Both the position numbers and the translations under genes were made by a program. A stretch of 18,233 nucleotides of DNA from a virus (taxonomy: Duplodnaviria; Heunggongvirae; Uroviricota; Caudoviricetes), in the IMG/VR virus record IMGVR_UViG_2734482771_000002; one strand, 5' to 3'. Below, one piece after another: positions 1 to 18,233 of the stretch (its first letter is position 1; each line of letters starts with the position of its first letter). Under the pieces are notes generated by a model. That model had not been told where the DNA came from. It searched no databases and saw only the letters and a program-made list of their open reading frames with translations.

Positions 1-195
1 AAAAACTGGATGTTCGCGGGTTCCGACAGCGGTGGTGAACATGCGGCGGTGTTGTACTCGCTGATCGGCACATGCCGTCTGAACAATGTGGAGCCAGAAA
101 AGTGGCTGCGTTACGTCATTGAACATATCCAGGACTGGCCGGCAAACCGGGTACGCGATCTGTTGCCCTGGAAAGTTGATCTGAGCTCTCAGTAA
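1..195 (+). CDS. IS66-family transposase, C-terminal fragment (5' end outside window)
   Basis: Translation ...MFAGSDSGGEHAAVLYSLIGTCRLNNVEPEKWLRYVIEHIQDWPANRVRDLLPWKVDLSSQ* matches the conserved C-terminal tail of IS66 TnpC-type transposases as I recall it; stop at 193-195. Confidence 0.7.
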   Translation, partial: KNWMFAGSDSGGEHAAVLYSLIGTCRLNNVEPEKWLRYVIEHIQDWPANRVRDLLPWKVDLSSQ

Positions 196-225
196 ATATC
201 AATACGGTTCTGACGAGTCGCTTAC
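1..225 (+). mobile_element. Right end of an IS66-family insertion sequence (partial; continues upstream of the window)
   Basis: Frame-1 ORF open to the window edge encodes an IS66-type transposase C-terminus; the element ends ...GAGTCGCTTAC at 219-225, whose reverse complement GTAAGCG is the terminus I recall as typical of IS66-family inverted repeats. Phage U coding sequence resumes in frame at 226. Confidence 0.7.
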
Positions 226-501
226 GTTTATCTCACCGGCGCTGAATACACGGGCGAAGAGCTGGACAGCGATACCTGGCAGGCGGAGCTGCATATTGAA
301 GTTTTCCTGCCTGCTCAGGTGCCGGATTCAGAGCTGGATGCGTGGATGGAGTCCCGGATTTATCCGGTGATGAGCGATATCCCGGCACTGTCAGATTTGA
401 TCACCAGTATGGTGGCCAGCGGCTATGACTACCGGCGCGACGATGATGCGGGCCTGTGGAGTTCAGCCGATCTGACTTATGTCATTACCTATGAAATGTG
501 A
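226..501 (+). pseudogene. U: Tail terminator protein U, 3' fragment truncated by the IS insertion
   Basis: Frame 1 from 226 reads [91 protein letters not shown], the C-terminal part of lambda gpU as I recall it. There is no start codon or RBS at the 5' boundary, which abuts the IS end. Confidence 0.8.
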
Positions 502-508
502 GGACGCT

Positions 509-1249
509 ATGCCTGTACCAAATCCTGTAATGCCGGTGAAAGGTGCCGGGACCACCCTGTGGGTTTATAAGGGAAGCGGTGACCCTTATGCGAATCCGCT
601 TTCAGACGTTGACTGGTCGCGTCTGGCAAAAGTTAAAGACCTGACGCCCGGCGAACTGACCGCTGAGTCCTATGACGACAGCTATCTCGATGATGAAGAT
701 GCAGACTGGACTGCGACCGGGCAGGGGCAGAAATCTGCCGGAGATACCAGCTTCACGCTGGCGTGGATGCCCGGAGAGCAGGGGCAGCAGGCGCTGCTGG
801 CGTGGTTTAATGAAGGTGATACCCGTGCCTATAAAATCCGCTTCCCGAACGGCACGGTCGATGTGTTCCGTGGCTGGGTCAGCAGTATCGGTAAGGCGGT
901 GACGGCGAAGGAAGTGATTACCCGCACGGTGAAGGTCACCAATGTGGGACGTCCGTCGATGGCAGAAGATCGCAGCACGGTGACGGCGACAACCGGCATG
1001 ACCGTGACGCCTGCCAGCACCTCGGTGGTGAAAGGGCAGAGCACCACGCTGACCGTGGCATTCCAGCCGGAAGGCGCAACCGACAAGAGCTTCCGTGCGG
1101 TGTCTGCGGATAAAACAAAAGCCACCGTGTCGGTCAGTGGTATGACCATCACCGTGAAAGGTGTTGCTGCAGGCAAGGTCAACATTCCGGTCGTATCCGG
1201 TAATGGTGAACTTGCTGCGGTTGCAGAAATCACCGTCACCGCCAGTTAA
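509..1249 (+). CDS. V: Major tail protein V (tail tube), with C-terminal Ig-like domain
   Basis: ATG at 509 preceded by GAGGA; [36 protein letters not shown]... matches lambda gpV. The supplied ORF begins 30 nt upstream at 479, but the lambda-like start is 509. Confidence 0.92.
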
Positions 1250-1264
1250 TCCGGGGAGTCAGAG

Positions 1265-1687
1265 ATGTTCCTGAAAACCGAATCATTTGAACATAACGGT
1301 GTGACCGTCACGCTTTCTGAACTGTCAGCCCTGCAGCGTATTGAGCATCTTGCCTGGTTGAAAGAGCAGGAAAAAAAGGCTGAATCCAGTGGCAACCTGC
1401 AGGTGTCTGTAGAGGAGCTTATCAGAGGCGGGGCGTTTCTGGTGGCGATGTCTCTGTGGCATAACCATCCACAGAAGACAAAGCTGCCGTCCATGAATGA
1501 AGCCATTACGCAGATTGAGCAGGAAGTGCTTACCACCTGGCCCACGGAGGCAATTGCTCAGGCTGAAAACGTGGTGTTACGTCTGTCCGGAATGTCTGAG
1601 TTTGTGGTGAATAATGCCCCTGAACAGACAGAGGACGCCGGGCCTGCAGAGCCTGTTTCTGCGGGAAAGTTTTCGACGGTGAGCTGA
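1265..1687 (+). CDS. G: Tail assembly chaperone G
   Basis: 140-aa ORF MFLKTESFEHNGVTVTLSELSALQRIEHLAWLKEQEKK... matching lambda gpG in sequence and in position between V and H. Confidence 0.9.
   Translation: MFLKTESFEHNGVTVTLSELSALQRIEHLAWLKEQEKKAESSGNLQVSVEELIRGGAFLVAMSLWHNHPQKTKLPSMNEAITQIEQEVLTTWPTEAIAQAENVVLRLSGMSEFVVNNAPEQTEDAGPAEPVSAGKFSTVS
1663..1669 (+). other. Programmed -1 ribosomal frameshift slippery heptamer G GGA AAG (G to G-T)
   Basis: GGGAAAG lies in the G frame (codons GGA 1664-1666, AAG 1667-1669) near the 3' end of G. The -1 frame is open from here to the stop at 2101-2103, as in the lambda G/GT mechanism. Confidence 0.8.
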
Positions 1688-2103
1688 GTTTTGCCCTGAA
1701 ACTGGCGCGTGAGATGGGGCGACCCGACTGGCGTGCCATGCTTGCCGGGATGTCATCCACGGAGTATGCCGACTGGCACCGCTTTTACAGTACCCATTAT
1801 TTTCATGATGTTCTGCTGGATATGCACTTTTCCGGGCTGACGTACACCGTGCTCAGCCTGTTTTTCAGCGATCCGGATATGCATCCGCTGGATTTCAGTT
1901 TGCTGAACCGGCGTGAGGCTGACGAAGAGCCTGAAGATGATGTGCTGATGCAGAAAGCGGCAGGGCTTGCCGGAGGTGTCCGCTTTGGCCCGGACGGGAA
2001 TGAAGTTATCCCTACTTCCCCGGATGTGGCGGACATGACGGAGGATGACGTAATGCTGATGACAGTATCAGAAGGGATCGCAGGAGGAGTCCGGTATGGC
2101 TGA
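1669..2103 (+). CDS. T: T-frame portion of the G-T fusion protein (expressed by -1 frameshift from G; full product join 1265..1669,1669..2103)
   Basis: The -1 frame relative to G is open from the slippery site to TGA at 2101-2103 and translates ...GRPDWRAMLAGMSSTEYADWHRFYSTHYFHDVLLDMHFSGLTYTVLSLFFSDPDMHPLDFSLLNRREADEE..., resembling lambda gpT; it ends overlapping the H start. Confidence 0.8.
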   Translation, partial: VFDGELSFALKLAREMGRPDWRAMLAGMSSTEYADWHRFYSTHYFHDVLLDMHFSGLTYTVLSLFFSDPDMHPLDFSLLNRREADEEPEDDVLMQKAAGLAGGVRFGPDGNEVIPTSPDVADMTEDDVMLMTVSEGIAGGVRYG

Positions 2104-4675
2104 ACCGGTAGGCGATCTGGTCGTTGATTTGAGTCTGGATGCGGCCAGATTTGACGAGCAGATGGCCAGAGTCAGGCGTCATTTTTCCGGTACGGAAACT
2201 GATGCGAAAAAAACAGCGGCAGTCGTTGAACAGTCGATGAACCGGCAGGCGCTGGCTGCACAGAAAGCGGGAATTTCCGTCGGGCAGTATAAAGCCGCCA
2301 TGCGTATGCTGCCTGCGCAGTTCACCGACGTGGCCACGCAGCTTGCAGGCGGGCAAAGTCCGTGGCTGATCCTGCTGCAACAGGGGGGTCAGGTGAAGGA
2401 CTCCTTCGGCGGGATGATCCCCATGTTCCGGGGGCTTGCCGGTGCGATCACCCTGCCGATGGTGGGGGCCACCTCGCTGGCGGTGGCGACCGGTGCGCTG
2501 GCGTATGCCTGGTATCAGGGCAACTCAACCCTGTCCGATTTCAACAAAACGCTGGTCCTTTCCGGCAATCAGGCGGGACTGACGGCAGATCGTATGCTGG
2601 TCCTGTCCAGAGCCGGGCAGGCGGCAGGGCTGACGTTTAACCAGACCAGCGAGTCACTGACGGCGCTGGTGAATGCCGGTGTGCGTGGTGGTGAGCAGTT
2701 TGAGGCGATCAGCCAGAGTGTGGCGCGTTTCTCCTCTGCATCCGGCGTGGAGGTGGACAAGGTCGCTGAAGCCTTCGGGAAGCTGACCACAGACCCGACG
2801 TCGGGACTGACAGCGATGGCACGTCAGTTCCATAACGTGACGGCGGAGCAGATTGCGTATGTTGCTCAGTTGCAGCGTTCCGGAGATGAAGCCGGGGCAT
2901 TGCAGGCGGCGAACGAGGCCGCAACGAAAGGGTTTGATGACCAGACCCGCCGCCTGAAAGAGAACATGGGCACGCTGGAGACCTGGGCAGACAGGACAGC
3001 ACGGGCATTCAAATCCATGTGGGATTCGGTGCTGGATATTGGTCGCCCGGACACTGCCCAGGGAATGCTGGAGAAAGCAGAAAAGGCTTTTGATGAGGCG
3101 GACAAAAAATGGCAGTGGTATCAGAGCCGGAGCCACCGGCGCGGTAAAACCTCAGCATTTCTTGCCAATCTCCGGGGAGCATGGGAGGACAGAGCGAATG
3201 CGCAACTTGGGCTTTCAGCCGCCACGTTGCAGGCCGATCTTGAAAAGGCCAGAGAGATGGCAGCAAAGGACTGGGTCGAGTCTGAGGCATCACGGCTGAA
3301 ATATACCGAAGAGGCGCAGAAGGCTTACGAACGCCTGCAGACGCCGCTGGAGAAATATACCGCCCGTCAGGAAGAACTGAATAAGGCACTGAAAGACGGG
3401 AAAATCCTGCAGGCAGATTACAACACGCTGATGGCGGCAGCGAAAAAGGATTATGAAGCGACGCTGAAAAAGCCGAAGCAGTCCGGCGTGAAAGTGTCTG
3501 CAGGCGATCGCCAGGAAGACAGTGCTCATGCTGCCCTGCTGACGCTTCAGGCAGAACTCCGGACGCTGGAGAAGCATGCCGGAGCGAATGAGAAAATCAG
3601 CCAGCAGCGCCGGGATTTGTGGAAGGCGGAGAGTCAGTTCGCTGTACTGGAGGAGGCGGCACAACGTCGCCAGCTGTCCGCACAGGAGAAATCCCTGCTG
3701 GCGCATAAAGATGAGACGCTGGAGTACAAACGCCAGCTGGCTGCACTTGGCGACAAGGTTACGTATCAGGAGCGCCTGAACGCGCTGGCGCAGCAGGCGG
3801 ATAAATTCGCACAGCAGCAACGGGCAAAACGGGCCGCCATTGATGCGAAAAACCGGGGGCTGACTGACCGGCAGGCAGCGCGGGAAGCCACAGAACAGCG
3901 TCTGAAGGAACAGTATGGCGATAATCCGCTGGCGCTGAATAACGTCATGTCAGAGCAGAAAAAGACCTGGACGGCTGAAGACCAGCTTCGCGGGAGCTGG
4001 ATGGCAGGCCTGAAGTCCGGCTGGAGTGAGTGGGAAGAGAGCGCCACGGACAGTATGTCGCAGGTTAAAAGTGCAGCCACGCAGACCTTTGATGGTATTG
4101 CGCAGAATATGGCGGCGATGCTGACCGGCAGTGAGCAGAACTGGCGCAGCTTCACCCGTTCCGTGCTGTCCATGATGACAGAAATTCTGCTTAAGCAGGC
4201 AATGGTGGGGATTGTCGGGAGTATCGGTAGCGCCATTGGCGGGGCTGTTGGTGGCGGCGCATCCGCATCAGGCGGTACAGCCATTCAGGCAGCTGCGGCG
4301 AAATTCCATTTTGCGACCGGAGGATTTACGGGAACCGGCGGCAAATATGAGCCAGCGGGGATTGTTCACCGTGGTGAATTTGTCTTCACGAAGGAGGCAA
4401 CCAGCCGGATTGGTGTCGGCAACCTGTACCGCCTGATGCGGGGCTATGCGGAAGGTGGTTATGTGGGCGGTGCCGGAAGTCCGGCGCAGATGCGGCGGGC
4501 TGAAGGCATTAATTTTAATCAGAACAATCACGTGGTGATTCAGAACGACGGTACGAATGGTCTGCCAGGTCCACAGATGATGAAGGCAGTGTATGACATG
4601 GCCCGCAAGGGTGCCCGTGATGAAATTCAGGCACAGATGCGCGATGGTGGTCTGTTCTCCGGAGGTGGACGATGA
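2096..4675 (+). CDS. H: Tail tape measure protein H
   Basis: 859-aa ORF MAEPVGDLVVDLSLDAARFDEQMARVRRHF..., coiled-coil-rich centre and Gly-rich hydrophobic C-terminal segment; lambda gpH-like. ATG at 2096 overlaps the T stop, and the H stop overlaps the M start (ATGA at 4672-4675). Confidence 0.92.
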   Translation: MAEPVGDLVVDLSLDAARFDEQMARVRRHFSGTETDAKKTAAVVEQSMNRQALAAQKAGISVGQYKAAMRMLPAQFTDVATQLAGGQSPWLILLQQGGQVKDSFGGMIPMFRGLAGAITLPMVGATSLAVATGALAYAWYQGNSTLSDFNKTLVLSGNQAGLTADRMLVLSRAGQAAGLTFNQTSESLTALVNAGVRGGEQFEAISQSVARFSSASGVEVDKVAEAFGKLTTDPTSGLTAMARQFHNVTAEQIAYVAQLQRSGDEAGALQAANEAATKGFDDQTRRLKENMGTLETWADRTARAFKSMWDSVLDIGRPDTAQGMLEKAEKAFDEADKKWQWYQSRSHRRGKTSAFLANLRGAWEDRANAQLGLSAATLQADLEKAREMAAKDWVESEASRLKYTEEAQKAYERLQTPLEKYTARQEELNKALKDGKILQADYNTLMAAAKKDYEATLKKPKQSGVKVSAGDRQEDSAHAALLTLQAELRTLEKHAGANEKISQQRRDLWKAESQFAVLEEAAQRRQLSAQEKSLLAHKDETLEYKRQLAALGDKVTYQERLNALAQQADKFAQQQRAKRAAIDAKNRGLTDRQAAREATEQRLKEQYGDNPLALNNVMSEQKKTWTAEDQLRGSWMAGLKSGWSEWEESATDSMSQVKSAATQTFDGIAQNMAAMLTGSEQNWRSFTRSVLSMMTEILLKQAMVGIVGSIGSAIGGAVGGGASASGGTAIQAAAAKFHFATGGFTGTGGKYEPAGIVHRGEFVFTKEATSRIGVGNLYRLMRGYAEGGYVGGAGSPAQMRRAEGINFNQNNHVVIQNDGTNGLPGPQMMKAVYDMARKGARDEIQAQMRDGGLFSGGGR

Positions 4676-5001
4676 AGACCTTCCGCTGGAAAGTGAAACC
4701 CGGTATGGATGTGGCTTCGGCCCCTTCCGTCAGGAAAGTGCGCTTTGGTGATGGCTATTCCCAGCGAGCGCCTGCCGGGCTGAATGCCGACCTGAAAACG
4801 TACAGCGTGACGCTTTCTGTTCCCCGTTGGGAGGCCACGGCGCTGGAGTCGTTTCTGGCTGAGCACGGGGGCTGGAAAGCCTTTCTGTGGACGCCGCCTT
4901 ATGAGTGGCGGCAGATAAAGGTGACCTGCGCAAAATGGTCGTCGCGGGTCAGTATGCTGCGTGTTGAGTTCAGCGCAGAGTTTGAACAGGTGGTGAACTG
5001 A
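4672..5001 (+). CDS. M: Minor tail protein M
   Basis: 109-aa ORF MKTFRWKVKPGMDVASAPSVRKVRFGDGYSQRAPAGLNADLKTYSVTLSVPRWEA... matching lambda gpM; translationally coupled to H and L. Confidence 0.9.
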   Translation: MKTFRWKVKPGMDVASAPSVRKVRFGDGYSQRAPAGLNADLKTYSVTLSVPRWEATALESFLAEHGGWKAFLWTPPYEWRQIKVTCAKWSSRVSMLRVEFSAEFEQVVN

Positions 5002-5699
5002 TGCAGGATATCCGGCAGGAAACACTGAATGAATGCACCCGTGCGGAGCAGTCGGCCAGCGTGGTGCTCTGGGAAATCGATCTGACAGAGGTCGGTGGAG
5101 AACGTTATTTTTTCTGTAATGAGCAGAACGAAAAAGGTGAGCCGGTCACCTGGCAGGGGCGACGGTATCAGCCGTATCCCATTCAGGGGAGTGGTTTTGA
5201 ACTGAATGGCAAAGGCACCAGTACGCGCCCCACGCTGACGGTTTCTAACCTGTACGGTATGGTCACCGGGATGGCGGAAGATCTGCAGAGTCTGGTCGGC
5301 GGAACGGTGGTCCGGCGTAAGGTTTACGCCCGTTTTCTGGATGCGGTGAACTTCGTCAACGGAAACAGTGACGCCGATCCGGAGCAGGAGGTGATCAGCC
5401 GCTGGCGCATTGAGCAGTGCAGCGAACTGAGCGCGGTGAGTGCCTCTTTTGTACTGTCCACGCCGACGGAAACGGACGGCGCTGTTTTTCCGGGACGTAT
5501 CATGCTGGCCAACACCTGCACCTGGACCTATCGCGGCGATGAGTGCGGTTATCACGGTCCGGCGGTCGCGGATGAATATGACCAGCCAACGTCCGATATC
5601 ACGAAGGATAAATGCAGCAAATGCCTGAGCGGTTGTAAGTTCCGCAATAACGTCGGCAACTTTGGCGGCTTCCTTTCCATTAACAAACTTTCGCAGTAA
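5001..5699 (+). CDS. L: Minor tail protein L
   Basis: 232-aa ORF MQDIRQETLNECTRAEQSASVVLWEIDLTEVGGERYFFCNEQNEKGEPVTWQGRRYQPYPIQ..., with the C-terminal Cys cluster (CGYHG...CSKCLSGC) as in lambda gpL. Confidence 0.9.
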   Translation: MQDIRQETLNECTRAEQSASVVLWEIDLTEVGGERYFFCNEQNEKGEPVTWQGRRYQPYPIQGSGFELNGKGTSTRPTLTVSNLYGMVTGMAEDLQSLVGGTVVRRKVYARFLDAVNFVNGNSDADPEQEVISRWRIEQCSELSAVSASFVLSTPTETDGAVFPGRIMLANTCTWTYRGDECGYHGPAVADEYDQPTSDITKDKCSKCLSGCKFRNNVGNFGGFLSINKLSQ

Positions 5700-5704
5700 A
5701 TCCC

Positions 5705-6448
5705 ATGACACAGACAGAATCAGCAATTCTGGCGCACGCCCGGCGATGTGCGCCAGCGGAGTCGTGCGGCTTCGTGGTAAGCACGCCGGAGCGGGAAAGA
5801 TATTTCCCCTGCGTGAATATCTCCGGTGAGCCGGAGGCGTATTTCCGGATGGCTCCGGAGGACTGGCTGCGGGCAGAAATGCAGGGTGAGATTGTGGCGC
5901 TGGTCCACAGTCACCCCGGTGCTCTGCCCTGGCTGAGTGAGGCCGACCGGCGGCTGCAGGTGCAGAGTGATTTGCCGTGGTGGCTGGTCTGCCGGGGGGC
6001 GATTCACAAGTTCCGCTGTGTGCCACATCTTACCGGGCGGCGCTTTGAGCACGGGGTGACGGACTGTTACACGCTGTTCCGGGATGCTTACCATCTGGCG
6101 GGAATTGAGATGCCTGATTTTCATCGTGAGGATGACTGGTGGCGTCACGGTCAGAATCTCTATCTGGATAATCTGGAGGCCACAGGGCTGTATCAGGTGC
6201 CGTTGTCAGCGGCGCAGCCGGGCGATGTGCTGCTGTGCTGTTTTGGTTCATCGGTGCCGAATCATGCCGCCATTTACTGCGGCGACGGCGAGCTGTTGCA
6301 CCATATTCCTGAACAACTGAGCAAACGAGAGAGGTATACAGACAAATGGCAGCGACGCACACACTCCCTCTGGCGTCACCGGGCATGGCACGCATCTGCC
6401 TTTACGGGGATTTACAACGATTTGGCCGCCGCATCGACCTTCGTGTGA
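5705..6448 (+). CDS. K: Tail tip assembly protein K (JAMM/MPN + NlpC/P60-like), long form
   Basis: 247-aa ORF beginning MTQTESAILAHARRCAPAESCGFVV.... It contains the E...HSHP...S..D JAMM-type motif (EIVALVHSHPGALPWLSEAD) and a C-terminal Cys/His region; the 3' end overlaps I by 103 nt. The classic 199-aa lambda K annotation would begin at the internal Met at 5849. Confidence 0.85.
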   Translation: MTQTESAILAHARRCAPAESCGFVVSTPERERYFPCVNISGEPEAYFRMAPEDWLRAEMQGEIVALVHSHPGALPWLSEADRRLQVQSDLPWWLVCRGAIHKFRCVPHLTGRRFEHGVTDCYTLFRDAYHLAGIEMPDFHREDDWWRHGQNLYLDNLEATGLYQVPLSAAQPGDVLLCCFGSSVPNHAAIYCGDGELLHHIPEQLSKRERYTDKWQRRTHSLWRHRAWHASAFTGIYNDLAAASTFV

Positions 6449-6987
6449 AAACGGGGGCCGAAGCCATCCGGGCGCTGGCCACGCAGCTTCCGTCGTTTCG
6501 CCAGAAACTGAATGAGGGCTGGTATCAGGTGCGCATTGCCGGGCGTGATGCAGGCGAAAATGAATTATCAGCCCGTCTTAATGAACCGCTGGCAAATGGT
6601 GCTGTGATCCATATCGTGCCGCGTCTGGCAGGAGCCAAAAGTGGCGGTGTGTTTCAGGCTGTGCTGGGGGCGGCTGTTATGGCGGTTGCTATATGGATGC
6701 CGGGGGTAGGAATTATGGCGAGTAATCTGCTGTTTTCTCTCGGTGCCAGTATGGTGCTCGGTGGTGTGGCGCAGATGCTGGCACCGAAAGCCAGAACTCC
6801 CCGCACACAGACAACGGATAACGGCAAACAGAACACCTATTTTTCTTCACTGGATAATATGGTTGCCCAGGGCAATGTCCTGCCCGTTCTGTACGGTGAA
6901 ATGCGTGTGGGGTCGCGGGTGGTATCTCAGGAGATCAGCACAGCAGATGAAGGGGATGGTGGTCAGGTTGTGGTGATTGGTCGCTGA
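6346..6987 (+). CDS. I: Tail tip assembly protein I (ubiquitin-like N-terminus, hydrophobic Gly/Ala-rich centre)
   Basis: 213-aa ORF MAATHTLPLASPGMARICLYGDLQRFGRRIDLRVKTGAEAIRALATQLP...GEMRVGSRVVSQEISTADEGDGGQVVVIGR matching lambda gpI; the start lies inside the 3' end of K. Confidence 0.88.
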   Translation: MAATHTLPLASPGMARICLYGDLQRFGRRIDLRVKTGAEAIRALATQLPSFRQKLNEGWYQVRIAGRDAGENELSARLNEPLANGAVIHIVPRLAGAKSGGVFQAVLGAAVMAVAIWMPGVGIMASNLLFSLGASMVLGGVAQMLAPKARTPRTQTTDNGKQNTYFSSLDNMVAQGNVLPVLYGEMRVGSRVVSQEISTADEGDGGQVVVIGR

Positions 6988-7005
6988 TGCAAAATGTTTT
7001 ATGTG

Positions 7006-7030
7006 AAACCGCCTGCGGGCGGTTTTGTCG
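7006..7030 (+). terminator. Stem-loop with trailing T-rich tract between I and J (possible attenuator or partial terminator)
   Basis: AAACCGCC-TGCG-GGCGGTTT forms a perfect 8-bp stem with a 4-nt loop at 7006-7025, followed by TGTCGTTT; it sits in the 60-nt I-J gap. Confidence 0.45.
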
Positions 7031-7047
7031 TTTATGGAGCGTGAGGA

Positions 7048-10000
7048 ATGGGTAAAGGAAGCAGTAAGGGGCATACTCCGCGCGAAGCGAAGGACAACCT
7101 GAAGTCCACGCAGTTGCTGAGTGTGATCGATGCCATCAGCGAAGGGCCGATTGAAGGTCCGGTGGATGGCTTAAAAAGCGTGCTGCTGAACAGTACGCCG
7201 GTGCTGGACAGTGAGGGGAATACCATTATCTCCGGCGTCACGGTGGTGTTCCGGGCCGGTGAGCAGGAGCAGACTCCGCCGGAGGGATTTGAATCCTCCA
7301 GCTCCGAGACAGTGTTGGGTACGGAAGTGAAATACGACACGCCGATCACCCGCGCCATCACGTCGGCAAACATCGACCGACTGCGCTTTACCTTCGGTGT
7401 GCAGGCACTGGTGGAAACCACCTCAAAGGGGGACCGGAATCCGTCGGAAGTTCGCCTGCTGGTTCAGATACAGCGTAATGGTGGCTGGGTGACGGAAAAA
7501 GACATCACCATTAAGGGCAAAACCACCTCGCAGTATCTGGCCTCGGTGGTGGTGGATAACCTGCCGCCGCGCCCGTTTAATATCCGGATGCGCAGAATGA
7601 CGCCGGACAGCACCACAGACCAGCTGCAGAACAAAACGCTCTGGTCGTCATACACCGAAATCATCGATGTGAAACAGTGCTACCCGAACACGGCACTGGT
7701 CGGCGTACAGGTGGATTCGGAGCAGTTCGGCAGCCAGCAGGTGAGCCGTAATTATCATCTGCGCGGGCGTATTCTGCAGGTGCCGTCGAATTATAACCCG
7801 CAGACGCGGCAATACAGCGGTATCTGGGACGGAACGTTTAAACCGGCATACAGCAACAACATGGCCTGGTGTCTGTGGGATATGCTGACCCACCCGCGCT
7901 ACGGCATGGGGAAACGTCTTGGTGCGGCAGATGTGGATAAATGGGCGCTGTATGTCATCGGCCAGTACTGCGACCAGTCGGTGCCGGACGGCTTTGGCAG
8001 CACGGAGCCGCGCATCACCTGTAATGCCTGGCTGACCACACAGCGCAAGGCGTGGGATGTGCTCAGTGATTTCTGCTCGGCGATGCGCTGTATGCCGGTA
8101 TGGAACGGGCAGACGCTGACGTTCGTGCAGGACCGACCGTCGGATAAGGTGTGGACCTATAACCGCAGTAATGTGGTGATGCCGGATGATGGCGCGCCGT
8201 TCCGCTACAGCTTCAGCGCCCTGAAGGACCGCCATAATGCCGTTGAGGTGAACTGGATTGACCCGGATAACGGCTGGGAGACGGCGACAGAGCTTGTGGA
8301 GGACACGCAGGCCATTGCCCGTTACGGTCGTAATGTCACGAAGATGGATGCCTTTGGCTGTACCAGCCGGGGGCAGGCACACCGAGCCGGGCTGTGGCTG
8401 ATTAAAACGGAGCTGCTGGAAACGCAGACCGTGGATTTCAGCGTCGGCGCAGAAGGGCTTCGCCATGTACCGGGCGATGTTATTGAAATCTGTGATGATG
8501 ACTATGCCGGTATCAGCACCGGTGGTCGTGTGCTGGCGGTGAACAGCCTGACCCGGACGCTGACGCTTGACCGTGAAATCACGCTGCCATCCTCCGGTAC
8601 CACGCTGATAAGCCTGGTTGACGGAAGTGGCAATCCGGTCAGCGTGGAGGTTCAGTCCGTCACCGACGGCGTGAAGGTGAAAGTGAGCCGTGTTCCTGAC
8701 GGTGTTGCTGAATACAGCGTATGGGGGCTGAAGCTGCCGAGGCTGCGCCAGCGACTGTTCCGCTGCGTGAGTATCCGTGAGAACGACGACGGCACGTATG
8801 CCATCACCGCCGTGCAGCATGTGCCGGAAAAAGAGGTCATCGTGGATAACGGGGCGCACTTTGACGGCGAACAGAGTGGCACGGTGAACGGTGTCACGCC
8901 GCCAGCGGTGCAGCACCTGACCGCAGAAGTCACTGCAGACAGCGGGGAATACCAGGTGCTGGCCCGCTGGGACACGCCGAAGGTGGTGAAGGGCGTGAGC
9001 TTCCTGCTTCGCCTGACCGTGGCAGCGGATGACGGCAGTGAGCGGCTGGTCAGCACGGCCCGGACGACGGAAACCACTTACCGCTTCACACAACTGGCTC
9101 TGGGGAACTACAGGCTGACAGTCCGGGCAGTAAATGCGTGGGGGCAGCAGGGCGATCCGGCGTCGGTATCGTTCCGGATTGCCGCACCGGCAGCGCCGTC
9201 GCGGATTGAGCTGACGCCGGGCTATTTTCAGATAACCGCCACGCCGCATCTTGCGGTTTATGATCCGACGGTACAGTTTGAGTTCTGGTTCTCGGAAAAG
9301 CGGATTGCGGATATCAGGCAGGTTGAAACCACAGCACGCTATCTTGGCACGGCGCTGTACTGGATAGCCGCCAGTATCAATATCAGGCCGGGCCATAATT
9401 ATTATTTTTACGTTCGCAGTGTGAACACCGTTGGCAAATCGGCATTCGTGGAGGCTGTTGGTCAGCCGAGTGATGACGCATCCGGCTATCTGGATTTTTT
9501 CAAAGGCGAGATAGGGAAAACCCATCTGGCTCAGGAGCTGTGGACGCAGATTGATAACGGTCAGCTTGCGCCTGACCTGGCTGAAATCAGGACATCCATT
9601 ACGGATGTCAGCAATGAAATCACACAGACCGTCAATAAGAAACTGGAAGACCAGAGTGCAGCGATCCAGCAGATACAGAAGGTTCAGGTTGATACAAATA
9701 ATAATCTGAACAGCATGTGGGCTGTGAAGCTGCAGCAGATGCAGGACGGACGCCTTTATATTGCGGGTATCGGTGCCGGTATTGAGAACACCCCCGACGG
9801 CATGCAGAGTCAGGTGCTGCTGGCGGCAGACAGGATTGCGATGATTAATCCTGCAAATGGCAACACAAAACCGATGTTTGTTGGTCAGGGTGATCAGATA
9901 TTCATGAATGAAGTGTTCCTGAAATATCTGACGGCTCCCACCATTACCAGCGGCGGTAATCCTCCTGCATTTTCCCTGACACCGGACGGAAAGCTGACCG

Positions 10001-10545
10001 CTAAAAATGCGGATATCAGTGGCAGTGTGAATGCGAACGCCGGGACGCTCAACAATGTCACGGTAAATGAAAACTGTACAATTAAGGGCATGCTGGAGGC
10101 GACCCAGGTCAGAGGGGATTTCGTTAAAGCTGTATCAAAAGCCTTCCCGAAAAAAGTCGGTACGTGGGGTAACACGGAAACACCAAACGGTACGGTTACA
10201 GTCACCATCAGCGATGATCATAACTTTGACCGCCAGATTATTATTCCGCCCATTATTTTTAACGGTATAGCGTATGACGATCCGGGGAGCGGAAATAACC
10301 CGGGAGGCACGCGATACACGGGTTATGGTTTTGAAGTTCGCAAAAACGGCGTATTAATCGCATCCAGAGAAACTAAAGGGGCCATTCCCGGTAGTTACAG
10401 TGCAGTTATTGATATGCCTAGTGGTGGTGGTAGCGTCACTCTGGAGTTTAAGATTTTCCAGAAAGGCAATCAGGGGGCAGGCAATATCACCGACTGTACG
10501 GTGATTGTGACCAAAAAAGCGGCTTCCGGCATCAGTATTCGTTGA
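7048..10545 (+). CDS. J: Central tail fibre / host specificity protein J (tip attachment protein)
   Basis: 1165-aa [57 protein letters not shown]..., lambda gpJ-like over most of its length (fibronectin III-like repeats); the last few hundred residues appear divergent from lambda J as I recall it. Confidence 0.92.
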
Positions 10546-10565
10546 AATTGTTATAACCCATATAA

Positions 10566-10591
10566 GGGCACCAGAAATGGTGCCTTTTTTA
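10566..10591 (+). terminator. Rho-independent terminator downstream of J
   Basis: GGCACC-AGAAAT-GGTGCC stem-loop (10567-10584) followed by TTTTTT (10585-10590), 21 nt after the J stop. Confidence 0.6.
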
Positions 10592-10614
10592 TTGCAGAAA
10601 AGCGAGAGGTAATT

Positions 10615-11214
10615 ATGCGTAAACTTTATGCCGCCATTTTGTCCGCAGCCATTTGTCTGGCCGTATCCGGTGCGCCTGCATGGGCATCTGAACATCAGTC
10701 CACGCTGAGCGCGGGGTATCTTCATGCCTCGACGAACGTTCCCGGCAGCGATGATCTTAACGGGATTAACGTGAAATACCGTTATGAGTTTACGGACACA
10801 CTGGGGCTGGTGACGTCATTCAGCTATGCAGGAGACAAGAATCGCCAGCTTACCCGTTACAGCGATACCCGCTGGCATGAAGATTCCGTGCGTAACCGCT
10901 GGTTCAGCGTGATGGTGGGGCCGTCTGTGCGCGTGAATGAATGGTTCAGCGCGTATGCGATGGCGGGTATGGCTTACAGCCGTGTGTCGACTTTCTCCGG
11001 GGATTATCTCCGCGTAACTGACAACAAGGGGAAAACGCACGACGTGCTGACCGGAAGTGATGACGGTCGCCACAGCAACACGTCTCTGGCGTGGGGAGCT
11101 GGCGTGCAGTTTAACCCGACCGAATCCGTGGCCATTGATATTGCTTATGAAGGCTCCGGCAGTGGCGACTGGCGCACTGACGGTTTCATCGTGGGTGTCG
11201 GTTATAAGTTCTGA
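10615..11214 (+). CDS. lom: Lom-family outer membrane protein (Ail/Lom/OmpX/PagC beta-barrel family)
   Basis: 199-aa ORF with a signal peptide ([24 protein letters not shown]) and the Lom-type C-terminus ...[29 protein letters not shown]; RBS GAGAGG upstream; located between J and stf as in lambda. Confidence 0.85.
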
Positions 11215-11240
11215 TTAGCCAGGTAACACAGTGTTATGAC

Positions 11241-11268
11241 AGCCCGCCTGTTCAGGCGGGCTTTTTTG
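11241..11268 (+). terminator. Rho-independent terminator downstream of lom
   Basis: AGCCCGCC-TGTTCA-GGCGGGCT perfect 8-bp stem (11241-11262) followed by TTTTTTG. Confidence 0.65.
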
Positions 11269-11278
11269 TGGGGTGAAT

Positions 11279-14200
11279 ATGGCAGTAAAGATTTCAGGTG
11301 TACTGAAAGACGGCACAGGAAAACCGGTACAGAACTGCACAATCCAGCTGAAAGCAAAACGTAACAGCACCGCGGTGGTGGTGAACACGCTGGCCTCAGA
11401 AAATCCGGATGAAGCCGGGCGTTACAGCATGGACGTTGAGTACGGTCAGTACAGCGTTATTCTGTTGGTGGAAGGATTCCCGCCGTCACATGCCGGGACC
11501 ATCACCGTGTATGAAGATTCCCGACCCGGTACGCTGAATGATTTTCTCGGTGCCATGACGGAGGATGATGCCCGTCCGGAGGCTCTGCGCCGTTTTGAAC
11601 TGATGGTGGAAGAGGTGGCGCGTAACGCGTCCGCGGTGGCACAGAACACGGCAGCCGCGAAGAAGTCAGCCGGCGATGCCGGCACATCTGCCCGTGAGGC
11701 GGCAACCCATGCGACTGATGCTGCAGGCTCAGCACGCGCAGCCAGCACGTCAGCCGGACAGGCCGCTTCGTCGGCTCAGTCAGCGTCTTCCAGCGCAGGA
11801 ACGGCATCAACAAAGGCCACTGAAGCGGAAAAAAGTGCTGCCGCTGCAGAGTCCTCAAAAAGCGCGGCAGCTACCAGTGCCAGTGCCGCGAAAACGTCAG
11901 AAACGAATGCTGCAGCGTCACAACAATCAGCAGCCACTTCTGCATCCACCGCGACTACGAAAGCGTCAGAAGCTGCCACCTCAGCCCGGGATGCGTCGGC
12001 TTCAAAAGAGGCGGCAAAATCATCAGAAACGAACGCATCCTCGAGCGCCAGTAGCGCAGCTTCCTCGGCAACGGCGGCAGCAAATTCCGCGAAGGCGGCA
12101 AAAACGTCCGAGACGAACGCCAGGTCTTCTGAGACGGCAGCGGGACAGAGCGCCTCAGCTGCGGCAGGCTCAAAAACAGCGGCTGCGTCGTCTGCCAGTG
12201 CCGCGTCAACAAGTGCCGGGCAGGCCTCAGCCAGTGCCATCGCCGCCGGAAAATCGGCAGAAAGCGCCGCATCATCCGCTTCAACAGCCACAACGAAGGC
12301 TGGCGAAGCCACTGAACAGGCCAGCGCAGCAGCGAGGTCAGCTTCCGCAGCGAAGACATCCGAAACGAACGCGAAAGCGTCGGAAACCAGCGCAGAATCC
12401 TCAAAAACGGCTGCCGCATCGTCCGCCAGTTCGGCGGCGTCATCGGCCTCATCGGCGTCTGCTTCAAAAGATGAGGCGACCAGACAAGCGTCAGCAGCGA
12501 AGGGCAGCGCCACGACGGCATCCACGAAGGCAACAGAGGCTGCTGGCAGTGCGACGGCGGCAGCACAGAGCAAGAGTACGGCAGAATCCGCAGCAACGCG
12601 CGCCGAGACAGCAGCAAAACGGGCAGAGGATATTGCATCCGCTGTGGCGCTTGAGGATGCGAGCACGACGAAAAAGGGGATAGTACAGCTCAGTAGTGCG
12701 ACTAACAGCACTTCCGAGTCACTGGCGGCAACACCAAAAGCCGTTAAGGCCGCGTATGACCTGGCTAACGGGAAATACACCGCACAGGATGCAACGACAG
12801 CACAGAAAGGGATAATCCAGCTAAGCAGCGCGACCAACAGCACGTCTGAAACGCTTGCCGCGACACCAAAGGCAGTAAAAACAGCCTATGACAATGCTGA
12901 GAAACGTCTGCAGAAAGATCAGAACGGTGCGGATATCCCTGGCAAAGACACCTTTACGAAAAATATTGGTGCCTGCCGTGCCTTTGGTGGGTCAGTAAGC
13001 ACAATAACAGGAAACTGGACGACTGCACAGTTTATCGAGTGGCTGGATTCTCAGGGAGCATTTAACCATCCCTACTGGATGTGCAAGGGGTCCTGGTCTT
13101 ATGGCAATAATAAAATCATTACTGATACTGACTGCGGTAATATTCATCTCGCCGGAGCTGTCATTGAAGTAATGGGGATAAAGTCAGCGATGACGATCCG
13201 CATTACCACACCGACCACCTCCACTGGTGGTGGAACAACTAACGCCCAGTTTACCTATATTAATCACGGAACAGATTATTCACCTGGCTGGCGAAGGGAC
13301 TATAACTCCAGAAATAAGCCAACGGCATCAGAGATCGGGGCGTTACCGTCAGGTGGAACAGCAGTATCATCAGTTAATCTGTCTTCAAAAGGTCGGGTAA
13401 CCGCGCTGACAGACAATACGCAGGGGGCAACAGGTCTTGAGTTATACGAGGTGTATAACAACGGATATCCAACAGCGTATGGAAATATCATTCACCTGAA
13501 AGGGATGACAGCCGTTGGCGAAGGTGAGTTACTCATCGGCTGGAGTGGTACAAGCGGTGCTCATGCTCCGGCATTTATTCGTTCACGACGGGATACGACC
13601 GACGCAAACTGGTCGCCGTGGGCGCAGCTTTACACCTCGGCTCATCCTCCTGCAGAGTTTTATCCAGTCGGTGCACCAATCCCGTGGCCATCAGATACCG
13701 TTCCGTCTGGCTATGCCCTGATGCAGGGGCAGACTTTTGACAAATCTGCATACCCGAAACTTGCAGCGGCTTATCCGTCAGGCGTGATCCCTGATATGCG
13801 TGGCTGGACGATTAAGGGCAAACCTGCCAGTGGTCGGGCCGTATTGTCTCAGGAACAGGACGGCATTAAATCGCATACCCACAGCGCCAGCGCATCCAGT
13901 ACGGATTTGGGGACGAAAACCACATCGTCGTTTGATTACGGCACTAAATCCACGAATAACACTGGTGCGCATACCCATAGTTTAAGTGGCAGCACGAATG
14001 CAGCTGGTAATCACAGCCATAGAGATGGCCGTCGATTTAACCCCAGTGTTTTTAAAGATACTTATCAATATGGTTATACAAGCTCAGGTCAAAATACCTG
14101 GGGTGTACAAGGCTCAGTAGGTATGTCTACGGGGTGGTTAGCTAATACCAGTACAGATGGTAATCATAGCCACTCACTGTCCGGCACAGCAGCATCTGCA

Positions 14201-14350
14201 GGTGCACACGCGCATACTGTCGGTATTGGTGCTCATACGCACTCCGTTGCGATTGGTTCACATGGACACACCATCACCGTTAACGCTGCTGGTAACGCGG
14301 AAAACACCGTCAAAAACATCGCATTTAACTATATTGTGAGGCTTGCATAA
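11279..14350 (+). CDS. stf: Side tail fibre protein Stf
   Basis: ORF beginning [30 protein letters not shown]... (ATG 11279; the supplied track starts at the in-frame GTG 11273). It has a long Ala/Ser/Thr-rich low-complexity shaft, duplicated KGI(V/I)[11 protein letters not shown](S/T)LAATPKAVK motifs, and a His-rich C-terminus ([43 protein letters not shown]) of the lambda Stf / T4 gp37 type. Its stop overlaps the tfa start (TAATG). Confidence 0.85.
12674..12892 (+). repeat. Duplicated 29-codon motif inside stf (copies 12674-12760 and 12806-12892, separated by 45 nt)
   Basis: Both copies encode KGI(V/I)[11 protein letters not shown](S/T)LAATPKAVK(A/T)AYD; the nucleotide sequences differ at many synonymous positions while the peptides are nearly identical. 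Confidence 0.8.
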
Positions 14351-14925
14351 TGGCATTCAGAATGAGTGAACAACCACGGACCATAAAAATTTATAATCTG
14401 CTGGCCGGAACTAATGAATTTATTGGTGAAGGTGATGCATATATTCCGCCTCATACAGGTCTGCCAGCAAACAGTACCGATATTGCACCGCCAGATATTC
14501 CGGCTGGCTTCGTGGCTGTTTTCAACAGTGATGAGTCATCGTGGCATCTCGTTGAAGATCATCGGGGTAAAACGGTTTATGACGTGGCTTCCGGCGACGC
14601 GTTATTTATTTCTGAACTCGGTCCGTTACCGGAAAATGTTACCTGGTTATCGCCGGAAGGGGAGTTTCAGAAGTGGAACGGCACAGCCTGGGTGAAGGAT
14701 ACGGAAGCAGAAAAACTGTTCCGGATCCGGGAGGCGGAAGAAACAAAAAACAACCTGATGCAGGTAGCCAGTGAGCATATTGCGCCGCTTCAGGATGCTG
14801 CAGATCTGGAAATTGCAACGGAGGAAGAAATCTCGTTGCTGGAAGCATGGAAAAAGTATCGGGTATTGCTGAACCGTGTTGATACGTCAACTGCACAGGA
14901 TATTGAATGGCCAGCACTGCCGTAG
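14350..14925 (+). CDS. tfa: Tail fibre assembly protein Tfa
   Basis: 191-aa [82 protein letters not shown]... matching lambda Tfa; immediately follows stf. Confidence 0.88.
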
Positions 14926-15022
14926 GGTAAAACATATAAATTCTATAATTAGATGTATCTTTCCATTTACGGCAAGGAAGGGGGCTTGGAAGACGTAAAG
15001 CATCTCACACCGAGATTATTTT

Positions 15023-15613
15023 TTATATGTCAGGTGTCTGAAGTTTTGCTTTGGCTCTTAAAATGGTTTGCCGCGAGGTTTTGAATTCCCGGGCAATGGC
15101 ACTTATACTTACACCTGACTTAATTCGTTCGAATACCACCTGTTTCTGTTCTTCATTTAACACAGGTGGTCGACCAAAACGTTTCCCTGCGCCGCGGGCT
15201 CTTACTATCCCGGAATGAGTGCGTTCAAGTAAAAGGTCTCGTTCAAATTCAGCGACTGCTGAAATTACTTGCATCATCATTTTTCCTGTTGGACTGGTCA
15301 GGTCAATGCCACCCAATGCTAAGCAATGCACTCTGATACCTGTTTCGGTCAGTTGTTCCACTGTTTTCCTGATATCCATTGCATTACAACCAAGGCGATC
15401 CAGTTTTGTCACAATCAATTGATCACCACATTTCAGGCGAGCAAGCAACCGGTTAAAACCAGGACGCTCACTGGTTGCTGCTGAGCCGCTAATGTGTTCT
15501 TCGATTATTTGCTGAGGTTTGATTTTAAAACCTGCACTTTCGATTTCCCGGCGTTGATTTTCGGTGGTCTGATCCAGCGTTGATATCCGACAGTAAGCAA
15601 AAATTCGAGACAT
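15023..15613 (-). CDS. pin: Serine recombinase, Pin/Gin/Hin-family DNA invertase
   Basis: 196-aa [32 protein letters not shown]... with the resolvase/invertase N-terminal catalytic-serine motif (YCRISTLDQ) and a C-terminal HTH ([22 protein letters not shown]). Convergent with tfa, as in the Rac/Qin/e14 arrangement. Confidence 0.88.
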
Positions 15614-15929
15614 AGTGAGACTCTATACGAAATTGGTGTTCATATCATAATGCATCTCAGAAAATAATTATGATTATTTTTGTGCATATTTGTATGTACA
15701 CGTTCGAAAATAAACGAATGCGTATGCAACCCCGTAATTTTGGTGAGACCCAAAATCGATTTTGTGAAAAATGGCTTTAACTCGGTTTGTTTTTCGAGTT
15801 CCGGGCGGACTCAAGGAAGAAGAATAGTGTTGCGTGTTATTTTAACCAGATTTCAAGTTGTTTGGTCGTGGAAAAGTGGAGCAAAATGTTGTTAAAGTGG
15901 AAAAATGATAAAAAAGTAAGTTTATTATA

Positions 15930-16163
15930 TTACATTTTACCATTTAAATTTTGGTTGTCTTTAAGAACTGATATCGCTGTTTGTAATAATTCTTTGTTAT
16001 CCAGCCATGATTTTTTCTTTATGTTTCCTTCAATGTAATCAAGCAATGTTCTGGTATTGATAGGTCTTCCCTGTTTTGCTACTTCCACTACAGCATCCCC
16101 TAGGATAATTCTTACTTCAGGAAGCTGCGCAGGGAACCACTTTAGGGTGTCTTTTGATTTCAT
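15930..16163 (-). CDS. ydfK: Small YdfK/YnaE-like protein (DUF1398-type, cold-shock-associated prophage gene)
   Basis: Minus-strand ORF; the supplied 88-aa version (to 16196) starts MKINNILRNIFMKSKDTLKW..., while the internal Met gives a 77-aa product MKSKDTLKWFPAQLPEVRIILGDAVVEVAKQGRPINTRTLLDYIEGNIKKKSWLDNKELLQTAISVLKDNQNLNGKM. The call rests mainly on synteny (pin-ydfK-ydfJ as in the K-12 Qin end) and size; the start codon is uncertain. Confidence 0.6.
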   Translation of the reverse strand: MKSKDTLKWFPAQLPEVRIILGDAVVEVAKQGRPINTRTLLDYIEGNIKKKSWLDNKELLQTAISVLKDNQNLNGKM

Positions 16164-16667
16164 GAAGATATTCCTTAAAATATTATTGATTTTCATTGCG
16201 ATATTGTATGTCTGATTCAGGATATGTTGACTTATACATCGGTTTTGTCTGGGTTATTGGATATGCCAATCCCTAATTTTATTAGGGCATGACTAAAAAT
16301 GCTGAATATGATAAGGAGAGATGTGATTATCAGTATGCTGTTCATATAGCCTCGAATTAGTAATGTGTTATATATGATATAGTTGACAATTTTTATCTTG
16401 GGTGTTCTTAAAGTTCGTAGATAAACATTGTCGTTTCAGGTATACAGGAATGCTAACAGGTGGCAGCAAAAATCAGGCGGTTTATGGCGCAAGCTGAAGC
16501 GGCAACTGTAAACTATCTTATGCAGAGACTCTACACGGATTGGGTTTAAAAGTATACATAGATAACAGTTTTTATCTGAAAAAGAAAAATATCAAGGTGA
16601 TATAGCCTATATGCCTTTGATGCGGAGGAATGAATGTGATGGGAGTGATGTATCTGAATAGTTGAAA

Positions 16668-16705
16668 AACCGCAGACACGCCTTATGCAAGAACGTGCTG
16701 CGGTT
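16668..16705 (-). terminator. Strong hairpin, terminator-like when read on the minus strand
   Basis: AACCGCAG-A-CACG [13-nt loop] CGTG-CTGCGGTT (12 bp of stem with one bulge). On the minus strand the hairpin runs directly into a TTTTT tract (complement of the A-run at 16665-16669); on the plus strand no immediate T-run follows. Confidence 0.4.
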
Positions 16706-16949
16706 GGCTGGTAAATTTTTCGATAGTGTGAGTATTGAATGATTTCCAGCCGTTCTTGATTTTACGCATAAATCCATGAAAAAACTACTTATCTGTTGGG
16801 GAGTTTTTTTTGGGGCATATATGGGACAGAAATAGGCCCCAGATAGACACTGAGATCGAACTTAGGATGCTTTTTAAAAAATGCAACTATCTGAAAAAAC
16901 CTAGAAAACGCCAAGGAAACCACAGGATGGGAAAAAACACCTGTGAATT

Positions 16950-18233
16950 ATGGATTTCCAGTTATATTCGCTCGGCGCAGCGTTAGTGTTTCATGAAATA
17001 TTTTTTCCTGAATCATCAACGGCAATGGCGTTAATTCTGGCAATGGGAACCTATGGTGCAGGTTATGTGGCGCGTATTGTCGGAGCATTTATTTTCGGCA
17101 AAATGGGCGACAGAATAGGGCGTAAAAAAGTGCTCTTTATTACCATCACCATGATGGGGATCTGTACCACCTTAATTGGAGTGTTACCGACCTATGCACA
17201 GATTGGTGTTTTTGCACCCATCTTGCTGGTGACGCTGCGTATTATTCAGGGATTGGGTGCAGGTGCGGAAATTTCCGGTGCCGGTACGATGCTGGCGGAA
17301 TATGCGCCAAAAGGTAAGCGCGGAATTATCTCCTCATTTGTGGCTATGGGAACTAACTGCGGAACCTTAAGCGCAACGGCAATCTGGGCCTTTATGTTCT
17401 TCATTCTCAGTAAAGAGGAACTGCTGGCGTGGGGATGGCGTATACCGTTCCTGGCGAGCGTTGTCGTGATGGTCTTTGCTATCTGGTTGCGTATGAATCT
17501 GAAAGAAAGCCCGGTCTTTGAGAAGGTTAACGACAGCAACCAACCGACAGCAAAACCTGCACCTGCTGGTAGCATGTTCCAGAGCAAATCCTTCTGGCTG
17601 GCAACAGGGCTGCGTTTTGGTCAGGCGGGTAACTCCGGTTTAATTCAGACTTTCCTTGCAGGCTATTTAGTACAGACGTTATTGTTTAACAAAGCAATTC
17701 CAACAGATGCATTGATGATCAGTTCGATTCTCGGCTTTATGACCATTCCGTTCCTTGGTTGGTTATCCGATAAAATTGGTCGCCGGATCCCGTATATTAT
17801 TATGAATACCTCTGCGATTGTGCTGGCGTGGCCAATGCTTTCTATCATCGTAGATAAAAGCTATGCCCCGAGCACCATTATGGTTGCACTGATTGTGATT
17901 CATAACTGTGCGGTGCTGGGATTATTTGCTCTGGAAAACATTACCATGGCAGAAATGTTCGGCTGTAAAAACCGCTTTACCCGGATGGCTATTTCAAAAG
18001 AAATTGGTGGTCTTATCGCTTCCGGTTTTGGTCCTATCCTGGCGGGTATTTTCTGCACCATGACGGAATCCTGGTATCCGATCGCCATTATGATCATGGC
18101 ATATTCAGTAATTGGTTTAATCTCTGCGCTGAAAATGCCAGAGGTGAAAGACCGTGATTTAAGTGCGCTGGAAGACGCTGCGGAAGATCAACCGCGTGTT
18201 GTAAGAGCTGCGCAACCTTCCAGAAGTCTGTAA
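16950..18233 (+). CDS. ydfJ: MFS transporter of the metabolite:H+ symporter type (YdfJ-like), apparently 5'-truncated
   Basis: 427-aa ORF MDFQLYSLGAALVFHEIFFPESSTAMALILAMGTYGAGYVARIVGAFIFGKMGDRIGRKKVLFITITM... with many hydrophobic helices. Its first residues align to the conserved (E)WYDF.LYG...FFP box that in ProP/ShiA-type transporters sits about 25-35 residues from the N-terminus, so the true N-terminus appears missing. In-frame stop at 16944-16946 just upstream; stop at 18231-18233. Confidence 0.8.
   Translation: MDFQLYSLGAALVFHEIFFPESSTAMALILAMGTYGAGYVARIVGAFIFGKMGDRIGRKKVLFITITMMGICTTLIGVLPTYAQIGVFAPILLVTLRIIQGLGAGAEISGAGTMLAEYAPKGKRGIISSFVAMGTNCGTLSATAIWAFMFFILSKEELLAWGWRIPFLASVVVMVFAIWLRMNLKESPVFEKVNDSNQPTAKPAPAGSMFQSKSFWLATGLRFGQAGNSGLIQTFLAGYLVQTLLFNKAIPTDALMISSILGFMTIPFLGWLSDKIGRRIPYIIMNTSAIVLAWPMLSIIVDKSYAPSTIMVALIVIHNCAVLGLFALENITMAEMFGCKNRFTRMAISKEIGGLIASGFGPILAGIFCTMTESWYPIAIMIMAYSVIGLISALKMPEVKDRDLSALEDAAEDQPRVVRAAQPSRSL

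Follow-up and report, generated by a model that had tools for sequence, protein, structure and literature searches.

Insertion sequence end and U fragment

The DNA analysed here, 18,233 nucleotides long and referred to below as the window, corresponds to bases 2–18234 of the draft contig JUBQ01000034.1 (87,466 bp; assembly GCA_000797815.1), which starts one base earlier and was identical to the window over all 10,195 bases compared. The window opens inside an insertion sequence (IS) because the draft contig breaks within the IS repeat; such an opening can simply be the end of a draft contig. On the plus strand, frame 1 of positions 1–195 is closed by a TAA at 193–195 and translates as KNWMFAGSDSGGEHAAVLYSLIGTCRLNNVEPEKWLRYVIEHIQDWPANRVRDLLPWKVDLSSQ. 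These 64 residues match the Pfam domain DDE_Tnp_IS66_C (PF13817) with an e-value of 2e-17 and, in agreement with RefSeq annotation, represent the last 64 codons of the IS66-family DDE transposase TnpC, the C-terminus that an earlier note on this DNA had recognised from the letters alone. It is on these C-terminal residues that the transposase is identified, the catalytic core lying outside the window. An exact look-up with the same 64 residues led to the source contig.

The whole of positions 1–225 (plus strand) is identical, at 225 of 225 bases, to the right ends of complete ISCro1-family elements in three E. coli chromosomes, those of O103:H2 strain 129, RMDEC332 and ETEC 120899, whose transposases carry the RefSeq label ‘IS66-like element ISCro1 family’. 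Every one of these complete copies stops at ...GAGTCGCTTAC, with unrelated DNA beyond it, so that the element boundary at 225, also placed there by the earlier note, is real. The right terminal inverted repeat occupies 191–225 on the plus strand, with its outer end ...GAGTCGCTTAC (reverse complement GTAAGCGACTCGTCAGAACCG) matching the left repeat of the complete copies, GTAACCGGCTCATTTAAACCG, at 15 of the 21 outermost positions. The left repeat starts GTAACCGG... in identical-ended complete copies and the right repeat of the window ends ...CGCTTAC at 225; the inverted repeats therefore start 5'-GTAA, as in IS66/ISCro1 elements, with the left one read from other copies. Those copies sharing the identical last 225 bp have the tnpA-tnpB-tnpC organisation; the window's contig begins within tnpC.

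Positions 1–225 are the right end of an ISCro1-like element of the IS66 family. The resemblance to ISCro1 extends to the identical last 225 bp, the PF13817 domain of TnpC and the ...CGCTTAC terminus, with its repeat starting GTAA, and the identical-ended copies elsewhere share with published ISCro1 a length of 2,699 bp (measured in strain 129 and RMDEC332) and 8-bp duplications. The window contains no more than the right 8% of the element, however, and the name depends on the RefSeq labels and on the length of the complete copies. ISCro1 has been described as a 2,699-bp element that produces 8-bp target-site duplications on simple insertion (PMC12115866), while another reported ‘ISCro1’ has a length of 2,824 bp (PMC8764528).

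From position 226 the same strand reads into the tail terminator gene U. Collinearity with uninterrupted U loci starts at 225/226, which corresponds to nucleotide 121 of U, the first base of codon 41; base 225 (C) equals nucleotide 120 of U by a coincidence of a single nucleotide. Positions 226–501 encode 91 residues followed by a TGA, and match positions 42–130 of the 130 in the Pfam profile Phage_tail_U (PF06141) with an e-value of 2e-42. The retained residues are 100% identical to residues 41–131 of lambda gpU (PDB 1Z1Z; also 3FZ2 and 3FZB), the intact U allele of sister prophages being identical to the lambda protein at 128 of 131 positions. What the window lacks in comparison with lambda are residues 1–40 and the start codon. 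The upstream frame is shut by an in-frame TGA at 211–213, and the earliest in-frame start after it is a GTG at 319. The fragment has no ribosome-binding site, and no gene is called over 226–501 in the source contig. Within positions 1–700 no promoter-like site was found, hence none directed outward from the IS, and the sole terminator-like hairpin there (205–220) is no more than is seen in shuffled sequence.

The surroundings of the fragment follow the lambda-type order Z-U-V-G-T-H: V, G, T and H come directly after U (509–4675) and Z, which lies outside the window, precedes U in two near-identical prophages (L009 and L017). A full-length, 131-residue gpU-like protein with its own start is absent. 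Region 226–501 is therefore homologous to U yet a truncated pseudogene remnant, codons 41–131 plus TGA, and not a functional member of the family. The IS removes the first 40 codons of a lambda-type U, with truncation at codon 40/41, just as the earlier note had described the last ~90 codons of gpU running on from 226 without a start.

Might the junction be an artefact of assembly, a chimeric contig end in a genome where U is really intact? It is 226 bp away from a short-read draft contig's end, and no fewer than nine further draft contigs begin at this IS coordinate too, making this a systematic assembly break point. However, the join coincides with the very last nucleotide of a known IS, as transposition yields, and so is not a matter of chance. 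A misjoin, moreover, needs shared sequence, which here amounts to one nucleotide, and the same contig is reported in two samples. We regard an artefact as extremely improbable. As a separate observation on these break points, the start coordinates of nine contigs from draft assemblies (L021–L029) agree within ISCro1 to one nucleotide, at 226–227 nucleotides from the right end, which is also the start of the window's source contig. Two of them (L025 and L027) are without the exact right-repeat motif, and related IS variants with common upstream sequence may lie behind the shared break.

Tail module, chromosomal locus and age

The tail module downstream of the U fragment (509–14925, plus strand) is whole. 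It comprises V (509–1249), G (1265–1687), H (2096–4675), M (4672–5001), L (5001–5699), K (5705–6448), I (6385–6987), J (7048–10545), lom (10615–11214), stf (11279–14350) and tfa (14350–14925), all on the plus strand, and the G-T slippery heptamer GGGAAAG is found at 1663. All 11 of the open reading frames from V to tfa are full length with a single terminal stop each, and the gene sizes equal those of prophages with intact U, bearing out the earlier description of an intact V-to-tfa module. Beyond the module, 15023–18233 carries pinQ (15023–15613, minus strand), ydfK, ynfT and ydfJ (16950–18233, plus strand), named from RefSeq annotation of matching E. coli chromosomes. Since these flanks are 99.9% identical to E. 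coli chromosomes, the prophage sits at the E. coli Qin locus.

Relatives of the prophage vary in how well they match the window over approximately 10090–12760. Alignments to seven of them (L007, L008 and L010–L014) show 99.3–99.9% identity up to 10088, are lost for around 440 bp and resume at about 94% identity across 10528–12760, a region running from the end of J through lom into the start of stf. L009 and L017, in contrast, are near-identical to the window throughout this stretch. The drop in identity is typical host-range mosaicism.

Three prophages allow the insertion to be placed in time. Between window positions 225–18233 and L017 (GCA_018134385.1) there are two substitutions in 18,009 bp, neither of which alters a protein: that at 13090 is a silent change in stf, and that at 15916 falls outside the genes called in L017. 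L009 differs by two substitutions in 14,451 bp and L019 by one in 10,393 bp. In each of these prophages U is intact, with 131 codons, and Z, FII, FI and the head genes lie ahead of it. The inactivation, which the earlier note had suspected to be recent, must indeed be so on this comparison, intact-U prophages differing from the window by only one or two substitutions in 10–18 kb.

The distribution of the allele is equally narrow. The junction was absent from all 5,426 complete E. coli genomes searched, and in none of 24 contigs encoding an identical J protein was an IS present at this position. A 30-mer spanning the exact right junction gave no matches in complete E. coli genomes, species-representative genomes, IMG/VR or JGI metagenomes, apart from the source contig itself. 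The allele is thus seen in one assembly only, and by these sequence comparisons the insertion is both recent and private to its strain.

This distribution bears on whether the insertion could be adaptive, halting virion production while immunity and lom are kept, or acting as a reversible switch through excision of the IS. Nothing supports such a role directly, although related prophages do carry several independent ISCro1 insertions in their FI-FII-Z-U segment. These insertions seem to cluster and to share an orientation, but this is an effect of the similarity search used, which joins same-strand pieces within ~1.1 kb of each other. Confinement to a single assembly, with absence from the complete genomes and the identical-J contigs, likewise speaks against an advantage, as does the lack of an outward promoter-like site. 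The earlier note's alternative of selection for a tail-less prophage accordingly finds no support, the allele being limited to one assembly, and we hold an adaptive origin to be highly improbable; neutral decay of the prophage would be the simplest reading.

Other ISCro1 copies and the left side of the element

Complete copies of the element elsewhere indicate how it might have arrived in U. In the FI-FII-Z-U segment of other E. coli prophages, 8-bp duplications flank all four of the complete ISCro1 copies examined: GCATCAAC at the Z/U boundary of RMDEC332, TACACGGG inside the gpU gene of O103:H2 strain 129, GGTTAACC in Z of six ETEC genomes and GCTGATTT between FI and FII in CFSAN018748. By comparison with these, the GTTTATCT at 226–233 of the window, nucleotides 121–128 of U, is predicted to be the right copy of an 8-bp target-site duplication.

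We therefore favour a simple insertion of ISCro1 into U, with a probability of roughly 0.85, because all four nearby complete copies carry 8-bp duplications, one of them in gpU only 21 bp away. On the sequence evidence, an ISCro1-like element would have transposed into U of a lambda-like prophage at the Qin/ydfJ locus of E. coli, landing between nucleotides 120 and 121 of the gene in the same orientation as the late operon. Some 2.5 kb further left, on another contig, there should then be the left repeat GTAACCGGCTC..., a second GTTTATCT, and U codons 1–43 running into a TAA supplied by the IS. The left flank expected is ...GCCGTTTATCT (U nucleotides 1–128, with Z before it), for which GCCGTTTATCTGTAACCGGCTC would serve as a sequence mark.

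What tells against a simple insertion is that only its right junction is observed, the left junction of this copy being on another contig. An IS junction at a contig edge shows that a gene is truncated, but not by itself that it is simply split. The right junction alone is equally compatible with a rearrangement, in which, after insertion, recombination between ISCro1 copies or a deletion next to the element displaced or eliminated all DNA to the left of U nucleotide 121, leaving a tail-only prophage remnant with no 5' U fragment beside the IS. With the left side hidden by the contig edge, such an event gains some plausibility from the abundance of the element, which is multi-copy in many E. 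coli genomes (our query matched up to 25–27 places per genome), and from published evidence that large segments are lost through homologous recombination mediated by ISCro1 copies (PMC12115866). Yet it demands a second event within the very short time allowed by the one or two substitutions separating the window from its intact relatives, and the four nearby complete copies, together with one from the literature, are simple insertions flanked by target-site duplications. We judge a rearrangement unlikely.

With the contig broken inside the IS repeat, the left IS end, together with the 5' U fragment and second GTTTATCT expected from a simple insertion, would be on another contig. A 31-mer across the predicted left junction, GCCGTTTATCT|GTAACCGGCTC, had no matches in IMG/VR, species-representative genomes or metagenomes. 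Look-ups with the H, J and V proteins retrieved only prophages with intact U. The sister prophages with intact U have every protein of the window in identical form, which leaves no protein unique to the source strain.

Simple insertion also predicts a 43-residue product, comprising U residues 1–43 before the IS-supplied TAA, and exactly this protein is present in the protein collection on 14 contigs. It was nevertheless rejected as evidence for the insertion, since partial U proteins from the N-terminus have been deposited in nearly all lengths between 34 and 57 residues, an expected consequence of contigs breaking inside a multi-copy prophage gene U. The N-terminal ‘partial’ U proteins in question (cluster P0001–P0015) have 34, 35, 37, 41–44, 46, 47, 49, 51, 53, 55 and 57 residues, some of them occurring on dozens of contigs. 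Contigs of draft E. coli assemblies seem to break often within U, a probable cause being several prophage paralogues that diverge there.

Two further truncated-U products were discarded after exact protein look-ups. That of 60 residues led only to an adapter-contaminated contig and to scaffolds with N gaps, and that of 51 residues to frameshift-ridden long-read assemblies. In one public assembly (GCA_054769875.1, contig BAAHUW010000283.1), the locus retrieved opens (positions 1–93) with Illumina P5/Nextera adapter sequence, AATGATACGGCGACCACCGAGATCTACAC...AGATGTGTATAAGAGACAG, that is joined to the middle of U, a case of contamination by adapter. A metagenome scaffold (ENA ERZ28576192) has a run of 60 Ns at 1313–1372 of the retrieved locus, just downstream of U nucleotides 110–120 and over the insertion site of the window, which might hide an IS or merely reflect low coverage.

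The closest parallel to the window is the gpU pseudogene of O103:H2 strain 129 (NZ_AP038976.1), where the IS, its orientation and the interrupted gene are all the same and where PGAP annotates the 5' and the 3' half of the gene as pseudogenes, each labelled ‘phage tail terminator protein, incomplete’. It is nonetheless an independent event, located 21 bp downstream of the window's site with its own duplication TACACGGG, in a more divergent prophage (~94–96% identical to that of the window), and the gene holds two head-to-tail IS copies. The pair spans 834–6225 of the strain 129 locus, the first copy being 2,699 bp and the second 2,693 bp long. The second copy is without the first 6 bp (GTAACC) of the left repeat, the right end directly abuts GGCTCATT, and TACACGGG is the outer duplication. 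An IS dimer or a junction of abutted ends could account for the tandem, as could an effect of assembly. Elsewhere, E. coli BN01 (NZ_CP187563.1, 2334975–2356966) has a related tail region with an extra ~4 kb, annotated with both an IS3-like element and an ISCro1-family transposase.

An insertion hotspot or orientation bias in Z-U, as a first view of these neighbouring cases might imply, was rejected in light of the same-strand joining of the search described above. That ISCro1 genuinely prefers the head-tail joining segment FI-FII-Z-U in the late operons of lambda-like phages is very doubtful. Were it true, infectivity of prophages would be lost recurrently in E. coli with immunity and lom kept, and the allele in the window would be one of many such events.

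Consequences for the prophage

In lambda, a hexamer of the terminator protein caps the tail tube and gives the surface that binds the head. With codons 1–40 and the start codon gone, U would be a null allele in the window; the 131-residue terminator fold would be out of reach for either of the two U fragments expected from simple insertion. Deletion of gpU in lambda leads to capsids and very long polytails (PMC11784142). By analogy with lambda genetics, induction of the prophage would be expected to give DNA-filled heads and unterminated polytails with zero infectious particles, while the cell would still be a lysogen. Late, anti-terminated transcription may, as in lambda biology, still pass through the IS to reach the downstream tail genes. 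Taking the gene analysis together with the lambda parallel, the prophage very probably cannot produce infectious particles.

Lambdoid prophages of E. coli inactivated by an IS are known, for instance in the pools of defective prophages of O157. The prophage in the window is like them in having a single IS in a morphogenesis gene with the rest intact, and nothing of substance sets it apart. Both the IS and the gene it interrupts are well known, as is the phenomenon, and a near-identical case is already annotated in RefSeq. The case is one of ordinary, recent prophage decay. Its importance is mainly for annotation, in that the prophage can be marked as very probably non-infectious and its inactivation dated as recent by comparison with sister strains whose U is intact.
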